From assembly GCF_000008625.1 (NCBI RefSeq), contig NC_000918.1:90001-122000 (forward strand): a DNA stretch of 32,000 nt, read 5' to 3'. How positions within the stretch are numbered: the first letter of the stretch is position 1; the number at the start of each line of letters is the position of its first letter. Source of the DNA: Aquifex aeolicus VF5. Its GTDB lineage: Bacteria > Aquificota > Aquificia > Aquificales > Aquificaceae. The notes beneath the pieces are model-generated. The model was not told the origin of the DNA and did no database searches. It was given only the letters and a program-made list of their open reading frames with translations. Made by a program: the position numbers and the translations under genes. Shown piece after piece: positions 26,090 to 32,000 of this stretch.

Positions 26090-27442
26090 TCACAGTATGT
26101 ACCTGCTCAGTTCTTCATCTTTTACGAGGTTTTCAAGTTTAGCCTTTACAAATTTTGCGTCTATTATTATAGTCTGCCCGGCCATTTCCGGAGCGTTGAA
26201 GGATATGTCTTCCAGGAGTTTCTCCATTACGGTGTGGAGTCTACGAGCCCCTATGTTTTCAGTCTTCGTGTTAATTTCCTCCGCAATCCTCGCTATCTCT
26301 TCTATTGCATCATCTGTAAACTCAAGGTAAACGTTTTCGGTTTTGAGGAGTTCTATATACTGCTTCGTGAGTGCGTTTTCTGGTTCTACGAGTATCCTCT
26401 TGAAGTCTTCCTTTGTGAGGGGTTTTAGTTCAACTCTTATGGGAAACCTTCCCTGGAGCTCCGGAATTAGGTCCGAAGGCTTTGCCATGTGAAAAGCTCC
26501 AGCCCCTATGAAGAGTATGTGATCCGTCTTTACAGGTCCGTACTTTGTGTTTACAGTGGTTCCTTCAAGTATTGGTAGGAGATCCCTCTGCACCCCTTCC
26601 CTTGAGACTCCGGGACCTGCTCCGGGTGTCTTTACCGCTATCTTGTCTATCTCATCTATAAAGATTATCCCGAAGTTCTCCGCCCTGTATATGGCTTCCC
26701 TTGCGACTTCCTCCATATCTATGAGCTTTTCCGCCTCTTCCTGCTCAAGTATCTGAAGGGCTTCCTTCACCTTTACCTTTCTCCTCCTCTTTGAGGGAAT
26801 AAGCCCTGAGAGCATCTCCTTTATCTGGTTCTCAAGTTCTTCGAGTCCGGGAGGTCCGGCTATTCCCACCATGGGCACGGTCTTTTCCTTTACCTCAATC
26901 TCAACTATCCTGTCGTCCAGTTCCCCCTTTCTGAGCTTTTGCCTGAGCTCCTCTCTCTTTCCGGCGTCCCTGCTTTCCCTTATTCCGAAGCTCGTGAACT
27001 GGTGGGGTACGAGGTAATCGAGGAGTCTCTCTTCGGCGAGTCTTCTGGCCCTTTCCCTTACCTCTTTCATCTTTTCCTGTTTGACCATCTGGAAGGAGAC
27101 TTCCACGAGTTCTCTTACCATGCTTTCAACATCTCTTCCCACATACCCTATTTCCGTGTACTTCGTTGCCTCTACTTTCACAAAGGGTGCCTTTATGAGG
27201 TTTGCAAGCCTCCTCGCTATTTCCGTTTTTCCCACACCCGTTGGACCTATCATCAGTATGTTTTTCGGGATAACCTCATTCCTCAGGTTTTCTGGGAGTT
27301 TTTGCCTCCTCCAGCGGTTTCTGAGGGCTATGGCAACGGCCTTTTTCGCCTCCTCCTGACCTACTACGTACTTGTTTAGCTCCTCTACTACCCTCTTAGG
27401 TGTTAATTCTTCAAGGAGCTCAGAAAGGGATTTCGTCGTCAT
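26090..27442 (-). CDS. hslU: ATP-dependent protease ATPase subunit HslU
   Basis: 450 aa with [12 protein letters not shown], Walker [18 protein letters not shown] and the I-domain insertion. Confidence 0.95.
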
Positions 27443-27884
27443 CTTTTGACCTCTCGGTGGTTTCTAAAGAAACTTCTTTAACTATCCTGTCAAGGAACGC
27501 GTCAAGGTCCTCGGGGAACTTTTCGAACTTGAGTTCTTCGGGGTAAACCCTTTCCACCACTTCGGGCGGCGGATTTCCGAAACCTATTGCTGGAACGATG
27601 TTCTTCGCTCCCCTTCTGACCGCTTCTCCGATTGCTATCCTGTAAGCTTCCCTCAGGGCCGTTTCAATATCCTTGAACCTGTCCACTTCGTCTCCTAGTT
27701 CGTACAGGGTTATGTCGTAGGCTTCTTCCTTGAACTTTTCCCAGTCTCTGATACCTCTGATGTAGTACTTTCCCTGACTTCCTGTGAGTTCAACGCTAGA
27801 GAGGTCGTCGAGCTTAAATGTAACGATGTAGTAATCTACAAGTTCCCTGTCCGCGTAAACGTCTATAAAGAAGAAAAACTCCAT
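27420..27884 (-). CDS. acidic hypothetical protein ending in an SSB-tip-like DDDEIPF motif
   Basis: 154 aa. The 3' end overlaps the hslU start by 23 nt. The C-terminus reads ...[14 protein letters not shown] recognise no domain. Confidence 0.6.
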
Positions 27885-27937: not shown

Positions 27938-28960
27938 ATGGAACTGGTAAGGGAACTGCTAAGGAAAATAGCTGAATTTGAAAACCTAACTGCGGAAGAA
28001 ATGTACAACTTGATGAAAGAAGTGGCGGAGGGAAGGGCAACGGACGCCCAGATCGGAGCACTCGTAATGGGAACAAAGATGAAGGGGGAAACTCCTGAGG
28101 AAATAGAGGGTGCAGTAAAGCTCTTCAGGGAAAAAGTCGTAAGGGTTCCCGTAAAAGATCCTGAAGAGCTCGTGGACGTAGTAGGAACGGGAGGAGATAA
28201 AAGTTCTACTTTTAACGTTTCCACTGTTACTGGGTTTGTTCTCGCTGGTGCAGGAGTAAAAGTGGCAAAACATGGGAACCGCTCCGTCTCTTCAAAAAGC
28301 GGTAGTGCGGATTTTCTGGAAGCCCTCGGAGCAAAAGTAGAACTTCTCCCTGAAAAGGTGGCGAGACTTATTGAAGAAGTGGGATTCGGATTTATGTTCG
28401 CTCCGCTCTTCCACCCCGCCATGAAAAGGGTCGTTTCTCCGAGAAGGGAGGTGGGAGTCCGATCCATTTTTAATTTGATAGGACCACTTACAAACCCCGC
28501 GGGTGTAAAGAGGTATCTCCTCGGTGTTTTTTCAAAGGAATACGTTGATAAATTCGCAAAAGCCCTTAAAAACCTCGGCGTTAAAAAGGCATTCGTCGTG
28601 CACGGGGAAGGTGGTATTGACGAGGTGAGCGTAGAAGGGGAAACCTACGTTACGGAAGTTTCAGAAGAAGGGATAAGGAGTTTTACCTTTTCTCCTGAAG
28701 AACTCGGTGTAAAGAGAAAGTCTCTGAGTGAAGTTAGGGTAAACTCCCCGGAAGAGAGCGTAAAAGTTGCACTTTCAGTTTTGAGAGGAGAAGAGGGAAC
28801 GCCGAGGGATATGGTTCTCCTGAACGCAAGCTTCGGAATTCTCGTATCTGAAAGGGCAGGGGATATAAAGGAAGCCTTTGAAATGGCTAAGGAGTCCATA
28901 GACAGCGGAAAGGCTCTGGAGGTATTGGAGAAGTATGTGGAACTCTCAAATAAAATCTGA
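27938..28960 (+). CDS. trpD: anthranilate phosphoribosyltransferase
   Basis: 340 aa with VGTGGDKSSTFNVST and KHGNRSVSS motifs. Confidence 0.95.
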   Translation: MELVRELLRKIAEFENLTAEEMYNLMKEVAEGRATDAQIGALVMGTKMKGETPEEIEGAVKLFREKVVRVPVKDPEELVDVVGTGGDKSSTFNVSTVTGFVLAGAGVKVAKHGNRSVSSKSGSADFLEALGAKVELLPEKVARLIEEVGFGFMFAPLFHPAMKRVVSPRREVGVRSIFNLIGPLTNPAGVKRYLLGVFSKEYVDKFAKALKNLGVKKAFVVHGEGGIDEVSVEGETYVTEVSEEGIRSFTFSPEELGVKRKSLSEVRVNSPEESVKVALSVLRGEEGTPRDMVLLNASFGILVSERAGDIKEAFEMAKESIDSGKALEVLEKYVELSNKI

Positions 28961-30162
28961 TGAAGGAAGCCCTTATCCTTTTCTTTCTTATAGTTTCCTA
29001 TAACTACCTCCTTTACTACATAACCGCCAAAGATTTAGCACTAATTCCCCTCTTTCCCGAAAACCCGGAAGAGATCATACTCGTCATAGCCTTCAACTCG
29101 GCCCTTTATATAGGCTGGTTCTTCGGGGAGAGGAGAAAACTCGTAACAATTCTGGGTTATTTATTTTTCTTTCAGACAGTTCTACTCTCTTTAGTGAAGA
29201 AAGATCCCTACACCTTCGTTTCTACCGCTTTTCCCGTGATCTTTACGCTTATGCTAGTTGCTCTATTCAAGAGCCCCTTTGAAAGGGAACTCGAAAGGAT
29301 ACAGAAAGAGAAAGAAGCACTGCTGGAAGAGCTGGAGAAAAACGAAGAGGTAAGACAAAAAGTAGAGGAAGAAAGAGAACGTCTAAAGAAGGAAATATCC
29401 CTCATAAAACTCCAGATAGAACAAAAAGAAAGAGAACTTGAAAGAGCTAAAGAGGCACAGGAGAAACTGGAAGAGGTTGAGAAAAAAGAAAAAGAAGTTA
29501 ATAAACTCAAAGAAAAACTAAGGGAACTCGAGAAAAACTTAAAAAAACAAAAGGAAAAGGAAGAGAAACTCCTAGAATCCAACAGGAAACTATTTCAGTT
29601 GCTTGAACTGCTCGGAAGGAAGGAAGATAAGAGGAGGGGAAGCAAAGAGGTAAGGGAGCTGAGAAAAGAGAGGAAGAAACTGGTCAAGGAAGTTTTAGAG
29701 CTACAGGATCTTCTGGAGATATACTCAAGGGAAAATGAGGAGTTAAAAAAGGAGCTTGAAAAGTTAAAGAGTGAACTAGAAGGGGCCAAAAAGGAAATCG
29801 CTAAACTCTTAACCGAAAAAGAGAATTTATCAAAAGCGGTAAAGAAGAAGGAAGAGATTTACGAGGAAGTCTTAAGAGTTTTCCTTCCGAACGTGAAGTT
29901 TACACCGGAAGCCCTTCAAGAATTCATGAGTTTATCCACTCAGGAGAAGAGGAGGTTTTTGAGGGAATTGGAAAAACTGGAGGAAGGAACGAAGCTCGAG
30001 AGTTTAACAAACGTTCACGGAGTTTACAAGCTCAAGTTCGGAGGTGGAAGGATTTACGTAAGGAAGGAAGGGGACAGGTGGGTAGTTATCGGTATACTGG
30101 ATACGGAGCAGGACAAGGAAAAAGAGCGCTACATAGAGTCTTTGAGGGATAGATTGTATTAA
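28960..30162 (+). CDS. membrane-anchored coiled-coil protein with a C-terminal RelE/ParE-superfamily-like domain
   Basis: 400 aa with about 4 N-terminal TM helices and an about 190-aa K/E-rich coiled coil. The C-terminus VKFTPEALQEFMSLSTQEKRRFLRELEKLEEG...VHGVYKLKFGGGRIYVRKEGDRWVVIGILDTEQ follows the RelE/ParE beta-alpha-alpha-beta3 pattern. The ATG shares one base with the trpD TGA. Confidence 0.65.
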   Translation: MKEALILFFLIVSYNYLLYYITAKDLALIPLFPENPEEIILVIAFNSALYIGWFFGERRKLVTILGYLFFFQTVLLSLVKKDPYTFVSTAFPVIFTLMLVALFKSPFERELERIQKEKEALLEELEKNEEVRQKVEEERERLKKEISLIKLQIEQKERELERAKEAQEKLEEVEKKEKEVNKLKEKLRELEKNLKKQKEKEEKLLESNRKLFQLLELLGRKEDKRRGSKEVRELRKERKKLVKEVLELQDLLEIYSRENEELKKELEKLKSELEGAKKEIAKLLTEKENLSKAVKKKEEIYEEVLRVFLPNVKFTPEALQEFMSLSTQEKRRFLRELEKLEEGTKLESLTNVHGVYKLKFGGGRIYVRKEGDRWVVIGILDTEQDKEKERYIESLRDRLY

Positions 30163-30227
30163 TAGGAGTCTGGTAAAATTGATAAAGGACTTAGCAAAAA
30201 CTTTGATAAAAACAAAGGAGGAAAGAC

Positions 30228-31451
30228 ATGGCAGAATTAAGGGAAACTCTCGAAAGACTCGCATCCTTCAGACCTCAAAATTACTACGTTTCCACCCTTT
30301 ATTTGAGATTAATGCCCGAAGACAGGCAGGACAACAAGTACCTGAGGGTTTACAAGGACCTAGTGAAAAAGAAGGAAAAGGATTTAGAAAACCTGAACCT
30401 GGATAAAGAGGTTCTTGATTCTATAAGGGGGGACATTAAGAACATTCAGGACTTTTTATCCGATCCTAAAAACCTTTACAACTGCAGGGGGATAGCGATA
30501 TTTTCCTGCTCAAAGCTCGGACTGTTTGAGTACGTGAAACTTCCCTACGTTTACAGAAACAGGCTTATGTTCTCACCTGACCCTCTCGTGAGGGAAATAG
30601 CGGCGATAGACGAGGAGTTCGGAAGGGTTGCAGTTCTGCTTCTTGACAGAAAACACATAAGGTACTTCCTCATGGACATAACGGGAATAGAAGAAAAGCT
30701 GGACTTCTTAGAGCCCATGACCACGAGAGCCCACAGGTTCCACAGCGGAGGAGCGCTTCTCAAAGGTGCGGAGGGAACGTTCCAGTACAGAATGCCCGCG
30801 AGGGGTGCAGCGCCAAACGTAGTTCAGCACGGAATGGGTGAGTGGCGTTTCCACATGAGATTAAGGGAAGAGTGGCACAGGATACTCAAACTCGCATCGG
30901 ACGCCCTCTTTGAAGAGTGGAAGAGAATACACTTTGACAAGTTAATAATCGGGGGATTTATAGAAGAAGGTCTGAGGGAAATAGAAAACTTCCTGCACCC
31001 ATACGTTAAAGAAAAACTGGTGGGTTACATAGAGATAACGCCCGAAGAGGCAACTCCCCATCAAGTTTGGGAAAAAGCCCTTGACCTCCTTTGGCAAAAG
31101 GACAGGGAGCAGGAAAAGGAAATAATTAAGGAGCTTGAAGAATTAAAGGGCTGGGGACTCGCGGTTAACGGAACTTCGGAAGTTCTTGAAATGCTAGCCA
31201 TAGGAAACGTAAGAACGCTAATTCTTCCAGAGGACTTTGAAAAACCCGGATACCTCTGTCCGCAGAGTCACCTCGCATTCTTAAAGCCCGAGTGCCCCCT
31301 TCCCGAAGAAAAGCCCATTCCCGTAAGCGACGTGGTTGACGAGGCATTAGAAGAGGCCCTGGATCAAAGGGCAACGATAGAGGTTATAATAGATAAGGAA
31401 CTCCAGAAGAAGGTGGACGGACTTGCGGCGTTCTTAAGGTTTAAGCTATGA
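30228..31451 (+). CDS. bacterial archaeo-eukaryotic release factor 1-like (baeRF1, eRF1/Pelota fold) protein
   Basis: 407 aa with AAGGAGG 8 nt upstream. The C-terminus GLAVNGTSEVLEMLAIGNVRTLILPEDF...ATIEVIIDKELQKKVDGLAAFLRFKL resembles eRF1 domain 3. The central region has FHSGGA where GGQ is expected. Confidence 0.65.
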   Translation: MAELRETLERLASFRPQNYYVSTLYLRLMPEDRQDNKYLRVYKDLVKKKEKDLENLNLDKEVLDSIRGDIKNIQDFLSDPKNLYNCRGIAIFSCSKLGLFEYVKLPYVYRNRLMFSPDPLVREIAAIDEEFGRVAVLLLDRKHIRYFLMDITGIEEKLDFLEPMTTRAHRFHSGGALLKGAEGTFQYRMPARGAAPNVVQHGMGEWRFHMRLREEWHRILKLASDALFEEWKRIHFDKLIIGGFIEEGLREIENFLHPYVKEKLVGYIEITPEEATPHQVWEKALDLLWQKDREQEKEIIKELEELKGWGLAVNGTSEVLEMLAIGNVRTLILPEDFEKPGYLCPQSHLAFLKPECPLPEEKPIPVSDVVDEALEEALDQRATIEVIIDKELQKKVDGLAAFLRFKL

Positions 31452-32000
31452 ACGAGAGGTTAATGATATTCATCGACGGTTCTAATCTGTTTCACGGAAT
31501 ACGGTACTTGAACATAAAGGTGGATTATTCAAAACTCGTGGAGTTCTTGAGGGAGGGGCGCTACCTCGTTCGCGCTTACTTTTACACCGCCGTTCCTCAG
31601 GAAAAGGACATCAAGAAGGGAACGCCCGAGTGGGACAGTCTTCAGAGACAAAAGAGGTTCCTTGACGAACTTTCCTTTATGGGCATAAAAGTGAAGACAG
31701 CTCACTTGAGGAAACTCCCGAGCGGTGAGTACCTGGAAAAGGAAGTTGACATAATGCTTGCCACGGATATGCTCTCCCTTGCTTACAGAAACGCTTACGA
31801 TACGGCTGTTCTCGTTAGCGGGGATAGCGACTTTATACACACCGTGGAAGCGGTGCAGAGTCTGGGAAAGAGGGTGGAAAACGCAACATTCAAGAAAACG
31901 AGTTCCTACAACCTGAGAAAGGTGTGCGACAGGTTCATACTTCTGGACGACCATCTTGACAAGATACTCATGGAGGAGAAGGGTAAAGAAATAGTTCCCG
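31448..32000 (+). CDS. NYN/LabA-like domain protein, predicted RNase (3' end outside the window)
   Basis: It is not in the ORF track because no stop falls within the window. The ATG overlaps the upstream TGA (ATGA). Motifs seen: MIFIDGSNLFHG, KEVDIMLATDM, VLVSGDSDF. Confidence 0.8.
   Translation, partial: MNERLMIFIDGSNLFHGIRYLNIKVDYSKLVEFLREGRYLVRAYFYTAVPQEKDIKKGTPEWDSLQRQKRFLDELSFMGIKVKTAHLRKLPSGEYLEKEVDIMLATDMLSLAYRNAYDTAVLVSGDSDFIHTVEAVQSLGKRVENATFKKTSSYNLRKVCDRFILLDDHLDKILMEEKGKEIVP

Follow-up and report, generated by a model that had tools for sequence, protein, structure and literature searches.

A RelE-like domain at the end of a predicted membrane-anchored coiled-coil protein of Aquificota, usually co-encoded with baeRF and NYN genes

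Proteins with the RelE fold are known almost only as toxins that are curbed by antitoxins or, in the type III CRISPR effector Cami1, by a CRISPR signal. Here we describe a different setting for this fold, the product of gene aq_197 of Aquifex aeolicus VF5, which is encoded in a 32,000-nucleotide stretch of the genome (contig NC_000918.1, positions 90,001 to 122,000 of the forward strand; this whole stretch is called the window, and coordinates below are positions in it). The RelE-type RNases that aq_197 most resembles, the RelE proteins of E. coli, M. jannaschii, P. horikoshii and T. thermophilus, M. tuberculosis RelE1 and RelE3, and HigB1, share with it the BECR fold, with a TM-score of up to 0.78 and a root-mean-square deviation (rmsd) of 1.8 Å. 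They are stand-alone proteins of about 90 amino acids encoded with an antitoxin, whereas the aq_197 domain ends a 400-amino acid membrane and coiled-coil protein that has no antitoxin. Its divergence also keeps it below every Pfam and NCBIfam threshold, and it appears to be vertically inherited within one phylum.

The closest published architecture is that of ToxM of the ToxM/ToxR system, which likewise carries a BECR/RelE-fold domain, predicted to be cytoplasmic, on a transmembrane segment (Gerdes 2025, PMC11980606). ToxM consists of an N-terminal BECR domain, a central transmembrane segment and an extracellular C-terminal domain, and it is co-transcribed with an upstream gene for the small ribbon-helix-helix (RHH) or helix-turn-helix (HTH) antitoxin ToxR (PMC11980606). 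The order in aq_197 is the reverse, with four predicted transmembrane helices, a coiled coil of about 200 residues and the BECR domain last, and there is neither an extracellular domain nor a toxR-like gene. The 2025 analysis left out multidomain BECR proteins for which no antitoxin could be identified (PMC11980606), which may explain why the aq_197 family is absent from it. Cami1, a CARF-RelE protein, resembles aq_197 in placing RelE at the C terminus behind an N-terminal module, and it gives the highest identity among the Foldseek matches (21-26%). It cleaves A-site mRNA on the ribosome (PMC11229360), which shows that RelE can act in the A site even when a large N-terminal module is fused to it (PDB 8phj; PMC11229360). 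In contrast to Cami1, aq_197 has no CARF match in Pfam or NCBIfam, no CRISPR-associated neighbours and no cyclic-oligoadenylate sensing, and it is predicted to be membrane-anchored, whereas Cami1 is soluble.

A preliminary description of the window, made from the letters of the DNA, had singled out the 400-residue open reading frame (ORF) at 28960 to 30162, and we found it there as described, with a product 100% identical to aq_197 (AAC06533.1 / WP_010880075.1 / UniProt O66577). It is a real gene, because 51 full-length homologs and about 21 more from a divergent clade match it with E values from 1e-27 to 1e-233, and its start codon is correct, because the N-terminus M(K/R)EAL.LLFLI is conserved among the homologs. 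The parts of the gene, and the two genes that follow it, are as follows, with AlphaFold2 abbreviated as AF2.

28960 to 30162, + strand: aq_197, 400 amino acids, stop codon included in the coordinates (ORF list)
28960 to 29274, + strand: predicted four-helix membrane domain, residues 1-105 (hydropathy, loop charges, AF2 helices, conservation)
29275 to 29634, + strand: coiled-coil segments H1 (residues 106-165) and H2 (residues 170-225) (AF2 break at 166-169, family indels)
29581 to 29694, + strand: hinge motif NRKLFQLLE...G..E...LRKERKKLxKE, residues 208-245, spanning the second break in the helix at 226-228 (conservation)
29644 to 29883, + strand: predicted stalk helix H3, residues 229-308 (AF2, length conservation, strongest heptad signal of the three segments)
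29890 to 30159, + strand: RelE/ParE-superfamily (BECR-fold) domain, residues 311-400 (AF2, Foldseek, profile comparisons)
30028 to 30057, + strand: motif Y-K357-L-K359-F-G-G-G-R364-I-Y366 (HMMER and hhalign alignments)
30106 to 30132, + strand: motif E383-Q-D-K386-E-K388-E-R390-Y391 where beta4 meets alpha3, which may correspond to RelE R81/Y87
30228 to 31451, + strand: baeRF gene, family 12/10, aeRF1/Dom34-like with an eRF1_3 domain (Pfam baeRF_family12 E=1.1e-18, family10 E=8e-11, eRF1_3 E=2.5e-5)
31448 to 32000, + strand, running past the window end: gene for an NYN-domain (PIN-like) RNase (Pfam NYN E=6e-35)

The structural models support a RelE/ParE fold for the C-terminal domain, with RelE-type proteins the closest, which agrees with the RelE/ParE likeness that had been suggested for the last 90 or so residues. 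The AF2 model of the domain (predicted local distance difference test score, pLDDT, 86; predicted TM-score, pTM, 0.78) has the topology b-a-a-b-b-b-a and a four-stranded antiparallel sheet, with strands at 20-22, 63-68, 71-78 and 81-88 and helices at 24-31, 35-49 and 93-107 of the model, the topology described for the BECR fold (PMC11980606). When this model was searched against the PDB with Foldseek, the top 50 of 50 matches belonged to the RelE/ParE superfamily with probability 1.00 (RelE, ParE, HigB, YoeB, YafQ, PrpT and Cami1), and the full-length AF2 model gave the same superfamily result. Normalised to the target, TM-scores were 0.65-0.78 for RelE-type structures (rmsd 1.8-3.5 Å) and 0.50-0.65 for ParE-type structures. 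A profile of 27 family members ranked E. coli RelE first among PDB entries, the top four matches having E values of about 0.01 and being aligned from the RelE N-terminus. Comparison of the domain with family profiles gave a divided answer: hhalign against a RelE family alignment returned a probability of 88% (E=2.9e-6), or 91% over 89 columns in a laxer extension, but the curated Pfam matches fell below threshold. The domain thus lies outside the curated RelE/ParE families, and it is profile-profile comparison and structure that support its homology. Neither of the two outcomes that would have spoken against the suggested likeness, a different fold or the lack of any profile match, was obtained.

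Residues K52, K54, R61, R81 and Y87 have been defined in E. coli RelE, of which R61, R81 and Y87 are critical, R81 as the general acid and Y87 through base stacking, and K52 and K54 add little to catalysis (Neubauer et al. 2009, PMC2807027). HMMER and hhalign agree in placing RelE Y51-K52-I-K54 on Y356-K357-L-K359 and R61 on R364. Conservation was counted in 34 sequences, down to 29% identity. Position 357, the counterpart of K52, is lysine in 30 and arginine in four; position 359, the counterpart of K54, is arginine in 18 and lysine in 16; G362, G363, R364 and Y366 are invariant. The confident hhalign alignment stops before beta4. A forced alignment, of low confidence, sets K386 on R81 and K388 on R83 and leaves Y391 one residue out of register with Y87. 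In this region E383 and K388 are invariant, K386 and R390 are each present in 31 of the 34 sequences, and position 391 is tyrosine in 21, phenylalanine in 11 and valine in two, so that a conserved charged and aromatic motif lies where the C-terminal catalytic helix of RelE is found. Like the RelE-type RNases, the family is therefore basic at the K52, K54 and R61 positions and has basic and aromatic residues in the C-terminal helix. Retention of the catalytic residues, about which the preliminary description had made no judgement, could in this way be settled for three of the five RelE positions, which map to conserved basic residues, and not for R81 and Y87, which were not placed reliably.

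The proposed four transmembrane helices were borne out by hydropathy and by the AF2 model. Kyte-Doolittle hydropathy in 19-residue windows has four peaks, at residues 4-22, 38-56, 61-79 and 85-103, which coincide with AF2 helices at 2-23, 36-54, 58-80 and 83-102. Loop 2-3 (GERRK) is positive and loop 1-2 has a net charge of -3. The predicted topology has both termini inside, with the RelE-like domain in the cytoplasm, because the number of helices is even and the loop charges follow the positive-inside rule; the periplasmic loops are predicted to be very short (5-16 amino acids). Polar and aromatic residues within the membrane domain are invariant or nearly so (N15 within Aquificaceae, P33, W53, G56, R58, Y67 and Q72), and the domain ends in an exit motif, S105-P106-x-E108, that is conserved in the family. 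A fold search with the full-length AF2 model found no structural relative of the membrane domain in the PDB.

Residues 106-308 are helical, with a composition of 28% glutamate, 21% lysine and 17% leucine. The preliminary description had seen here a single coiled-coil spacer of about 190 residues; the coiled coil is real, but it comprises about 200 residues in three segments, modelled by AF2 as long helices at 106-165, 170-225 and 229-308. Each segment has a 3.5-residue hydrophobic periodicity that was reached by none of 2000 shuffles, and the region taken as a whole has no significant heptad periodicity. Since the periodicity holds within segments and not across them, the heptad register breaks at the helix breaks of the model. 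The first two segments probably fold back on each other as an antiparallel hairpin that varies in length and turns at about 154-171, because it is there that the indels of the family are centred and that the modelled helix is interrupted (166-169). The distance from S105 to N208 varies from 74 to 115 amino acids across the family, and the secondary Foldseek matches of the full-length model are antiparallel coiled-coil hairpins (p85 iSH2, YscO and HlyD). The hinge that follows is present in the divergent clade too: N208, L211, L215 and R235 are invariant, E237, R238 and K239 nearly so, and the spacing from N208 to R235 is held at 24-28 amino acids. H3 is poorly conserved in sequence, yet the distance from R235 to F314 is 73-83 amino acids in all 34 sequences. 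H3 thus acts like a stalk whose length, about 79 amino acids, is constrained, and we infer that it would measure roughly 12 nm if fully helical.

The downstream baeRF and NYN genes, which the preliminary description had missed, are the main clue to function. The NYN start codon overlaps the baeRF stop codon (ATGA), and the acidic motifs IDGSN, EVDIMLATD and SGDSDF of the NYN protein are invariant in 15 orthologs. A 141-amino acid ORF antisense to the NYN gene (31529-31954, - strand) is probably spurious. In the baeRF protein an invariant HSGGA stands in place of the GGQ of eRF1, followed by a loop about 28 amino acids longer, an invariant glutamine (VQH) and then an eRF1-like RF..R..EE motif. 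The layout aq_197-baeRF-NYN was seen in 10 sampled lineages that differ in their upstream genes, and of 28 informative metagenome loci centred on baeRF, 16 have an aq_197 ortholog directly upstream of it. One lineage has aq_197-NYN with a 4-nucleotide overlap and no baeRF (L025 5001-6727 and L026 3184-4910), and where the sequence extends far enough, baeRF is almost always followed by NYN. A contig scan with a single baeRF query reached only close relatives (nine loci). The three genes form a frequent but dissociable module, and aq_197 can also function without adjacent partners. Because the downstream baeRF and NYN genes are conserved, a classical toxin is unlikely. The baeRFs have been proposed to relieve stalled ribosomes, and elsewhere among bacteria baeRF families are tied to factors of hibernation (Burroughs and Aravind 2019, PMC6514570). 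The main text of that paper has no NYN and contains RelE solely in the Neubauer et al. reference, not as a baeRF partner (PMC6514570); the baeRF/NYN context of aq_197 is new information.

Several of the baeRF loci have features of their own. Where aq_197 is missing, the gene upstream of baeRF encodes, as judged by reading the sequence and not by a family search, a YebC-family protein in L006 (4558-5307) and an EpmA/PoxA-like lysyl-tRNA synthetase paralog in L010 (2968-3867). Both of these families are connected with relief of translational stalling. Two of the loci with a standalone baeRF, L048 and L051, come from the same metagenome series as L025 and L026, and baeRF may have moved elsewhere there. 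In the metagenome contigs L018 (1725-2853), L022 (7386-8008), L050 (3688-4213) and L053 (4859-6057), the baeRF or NYN frame is broken into two or three parts, which could reflect frameshift errors or decaying genes. On a 3.8-kb contig of Sulfurihydrogenibium yellowstonense SS-5 (L011), baeRF is present with no NYN after it; the first 30 or so residues of its product differ at three positions from the Thermocrinis-type protein of L010, and both are 58% identical to the Aquifex protein. Contamination of a draft assembly or transfer between families could account for this gene.

No antitoxin-sized gene flanks aq_197 in the window, as had been proposed: trpD lies upstream, and downstream a 65-nucleotide spacer leads to a gene of 407 amino acids. 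In relatives the gap to the downstream gene is 13-24 nucleotides, and the divergent clade is monocistronic without room for a partner gene. None of the gene layouts seen across the family contains an antitoxin candidate, and Pfam and NCBIfam scans of the aq_197 protein gave no RHH, HTH or Phd domain match. The small ORFs near the 3' end (30179-30406, + strand, and 30004-30264, - strand) are out-of-frame or antisense readings of lysine- and glutamate-rich coding sequence. In the scans around the genes, no + strand terminator-like site was found between aq_197, baeRF and NYN, no tRNA near the block, and nothing relevant in Rfam.

The first search found 51 full-length homologs with 35-82% identity in Aquifex, Hydrogenivirga, Hydrogenobacter, Thermocrinis and metagenome-assembled genomes of Aquificae. 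The divergent clade adds about 21 proteins of about 410 amino acids that are about 30% identical and keep the architecture and motifs, which brings the family to about 70 proteins from Aquificota and from hot-spring and vent metagenomes. Every complete ORF and full-length match has 356-432 amino acids and the common architecture. A search of 1.84 billion representatives with a hidden Markov model (HMM) of the domain alone returned 24 proteins, all of the aq_197 family, with no canonical stand-alone toxin among them; it was this search that brought the divergent clade to light. A 184-amino acid protein from an 808-nucleotide contig (P0052) has the RelE-like domain behind an unrelated N-terminus of about 85 amino acids, without transmembrane helices or coiled coil, and is either a second architecture or the product of a chimeric or mis-assembled contig. 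The family has a single locus wherever sampled and occurs throughout one phylum with identities that track taxonomy, the identity of aq_197 orthologs falling across genera in the same order as that of baeRF. The gene block has native GC content and housekeeping flanks, features that, with the lack of a nearby tRNA, speak against a mobile element. The family appears to be inherited vertically, on the chromosome, within one phylum. Having no antitoxin, more than one domain and a distribution that is not patchy, aq_197 is not a type II toxin-antitoxin module.

A literature search for aq_197, O66577 and WP_010880075 found no publication. The JGI pipeline names two members of the family 'mRNA-degrading endonuclease RelE...', and the RelE similarity has thus been flagged by software but not described in print. 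Automatic names conflict among P0001, P0024, P0048, P0051, P0068, P0207 and P0217 (CARD, TOPRIM nuclease, RelE/prefoldin subunit 5). The UniRef name 'CARD domain-containing protein' was rejected, there being no CARD match in the Pfam or NCBIfam scans, and the JGI label 'predicted nuclease with TOPRIM domain' for P0068 has no supporting match on the aq_197 protein. Whole-protein matches to SMC, Rad50 and crescentin in Pfam and NCBIfam are coiled-coil noise. A likeness to HPF/sigma-54 modulation protein in a single-sequence phmmer search of the PDB (E=0.6) was not significant, was not reproduced by the profile search and was set aside as chance. Among the database names, the RelE label alone fits the evidence.

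The preliminary description also drew attention to the upstream junction, which reads ...atcTGATGaag, base 28960 being common to the TGA stop of trpD (28958-28960) and the ATG of aq_197 (28960-28962).

27938 to 28960, + strand: trpD, anthranilate phosphoribosyltransferase (Pfam Glycos_transf_3 E=2e-91)

The shared base is there, but trpD precedes aq_197 only in the window and in the two Aquifex relatives nearest to it (L007 and L027), and it is the downstream neighbours that are informative. In other lineages the gene upstream of the aq_197 ortholog is DUF815, DJ-1, proS, an ABC transporter gene or an opposite-strand neighbour. We therefore regard the junction with trpD as incidental, its conservation being confined to the genus Aquifex. 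Further upstream, a 154-amino acid ORF without a Pfam match (27420-27884, - strand) overlaps the start of hslU by 23 nucleotides; it occupies the usual position of hslV, yet its product is not HslV-like in appearance.

What these observations point to is an undescribed membrane-linked translation-surveillance module, and not a toxin-antitoxin pair. Our tentative reading, which we hold with some reserve, is that aq_197 is a domesticated, membrane-tethered, ribosome-dependent mRNA endonuclease that works with baeRF and NYN. The RelE-type domain would enter the A site of ribosomes that are translating near the membrane, where it would cut their mRNA, and the membrane tether would limit its reach, in line with the suggestion of the preliminary description that tethering may restrict or sense activity; that the length of the stalk is constrained while that of the hairpin varies speaks for this reading. 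The baeRF would rescue the ribosome stranded on the cleaved message, in keeping with the general proposal for baeRFs (PMC6514570), NYN would degrade the mRNA fragments, and the conserved membrane domain may gate activity upon a membrane or translocation signal. The whole would be a membrane-proximal analogue of no-go and non-stop decay, in which an endonuclease, Dom34/Pelota and mRNA decay act together: the trio likewise brings together a candidate endonuclease of the A site, a factor resembling aeRF1/Dom34 and an RNase. This is a likeness of logic only, and the endonuclease fold of no-go decay, SMR/Cue2, differs from RelE. A fuller version, which we regard as doubtful, makes the trio the bacterial, membrane-anchored counterpart of no-go/non-stop decay, in which a RelE-fold endonuclease on a stalk of fixed length would cut the A-site mRNA of ribosomes that have stalled at the membrane or the translocon, a release and rescue factor of archaeal type would clear the ribosome, NYN would remove the message and the four-helix domain would serve as a stress sensor, a logic like that of IRE1-dependent decay in eukaryotes. 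All of the mechanism beyond the fold and the gene context is inference.

A number of points weigh against a membrane-tethered endonuclease acting with these partners. The sub-threshold Pfam matches of the domain, which span the whole profiles, are to ParE_toxin (E=0.013; 16.5 bits, where the cutoff is 23) and Gp49 (E=0.025; 15.1 bits, where it is 23.9), and the NCBIfam scan gave no RelE/ParE-type match; among 27 family members, four and two respectively reach a Pfam E value below 1 (best 0.0019). Equivalents of R81 and Y87 in aq_197 are not placeable at usable confidence by sequence alignment. The geometry of the hairpin and the reach of the stalk come from an unrelaxed monomer AF2 model with a pTM of 0.41. 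Peptide release by baeRF is uncertain, because its loop reads SGGA and not GGQ. In 12 of the 28 informative metagenome loci baeRF has no aq_197 ortholog upstream, and in L033, L048, L051 and L054 it stands alone with neither partner. In the divergent clade, on three contigs, the aq_197 homolog is monocistronic between PglB (- strand) and an M23 peptidase gene (- strand), with no baeRF or NYN nearby. Finally, that the target ribosomes would be membrane-bound is a proposal of ours.

Among the alternatives, a non-catalytic adaptor survives best, although we consider it rather unlikely. The RelE fold would then serve as a module that binds the ribosome (A site or 30S subunit) or a protein and that tethers or parks ribosomes at the membrane, for instance in hibernation or localisation, with no cutting of mRNA. 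The unplaced R81 and Y87 equivalents leave room for such a role, as does the minor part of K52 and K54 in RelE catalysis (PMC2807027), since the conserved basic residues could serve RNA binding alone; the link of baeRF families to hibernation factors elsewhere (PMC6514570) speaks for it too, and the constrained length of the stalk fits a spacer or tether equally well. However, the invariant counterpart of the critical R61 (R364), the invariant E383 and K388, the near-invariant R390 and the aromatic residue at 391 resemble an active site rather than a patch for binding, and direct coupling to an apparently active NYN nuclease suggests RNA degradation.

It is improbable that aq_197 is a single-gene defence or abortive-infection toxin, whose membrane domain would sense phage entry or envelope damage and lift the inhibition that the coiled coil exerts in cis on the RelE domain, so that translation is shut down, with baeRF and NYN as accessory or reset factors. 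Autoinhibition would account for the missing antitoxin, Cami1 is a defence RelE, and multidomain and membrane-associated BECR toxins (ToxM and PtuZ) have been proposed as defence factors (PMC11980606). In PADLOC-DB v2, NYN matches the generic NYN and the HEC-09 nuclease models, but the RelE-like domain and baeRF have no match, aq_197 matching only SMC-like coiled-coil models at E values of at least 7e-5. The housekeeping flanks, native GC content and absence of a nearby tRNA also argue against defence, as do the restriction to one phylum, the single locus, the agreement of identities with taxonomy and the very short periplasmic loops.

A shade less probable again is a coiled-coil membrane protein related to the envelope or to division, whose RelE fold would be a protein-protein interaction module with no role at the ribosome. 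This would suit the conserved place of the divergent-clade gene between PglB/STT3 and the M23 peptidase gene, and the fact that the transmembrane domain and hinge are conserved as much as the RelE-like domain. Since PglB/STT3 and the peptidase gene both lie on the other strand, however, the synteny may be local collinearity only, whereas the partners in Aquificaceae are same-strand translation and RNA factors with overlapping or near-abutting frames, and the conserved residues map to RNA-facing positions of RelE.

We give very little weight to a ParE-like activity, in which the domain inhibits DNA gyrase or another non-ribosomal target. The best Pfam match is nominally ParE_toxin and ParE structures are among the Foldseek matches, but PF05016 includes E. 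coli RelE and other mRNases (PMC11980606), RelE-type structures fit better than ParE-type ones, ParE toxins are without the basic residues of the RNases (PMC11980606) that the aq_197 family retains, and the partner genes concern translation and RNA. A classical type II toxin with an overlooked antitoxin, either a small unannotated ORF or baeRF itself, would suit the toxin fold and the two small ORFs that overlap the 3' end, but it is largely refuted by the nature of those ORFs, the narrow gaps in relatives, the monocistronic divergent clade and the occurrence of aq_197 orthologs without baeRF and of baeRF without them.

The aq_197 family places a RelE fold in a deep-branching thermophilic phylum, with no antitoxin, predicted to be anchored in the membrane by way of a stalk whose length is constrained, and usually co-encoded with baeRF and NYN. 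Proteins of the aq_197 type are thermostable, and Thermus and Aquifex ribosomes are suited to cryo-electron microscopy, which makes the hypothesis of a membrane-tethered endonuclease directly testable. If it is true, the family would show clearly how a toxin fold can be domesticated for housekeeping control of translation, it would provide the first concrete, testable role for a baeRF family, and it would mean that spatial confinement, and not an antitoxin, can tame a ribosome-dependent nuclease.

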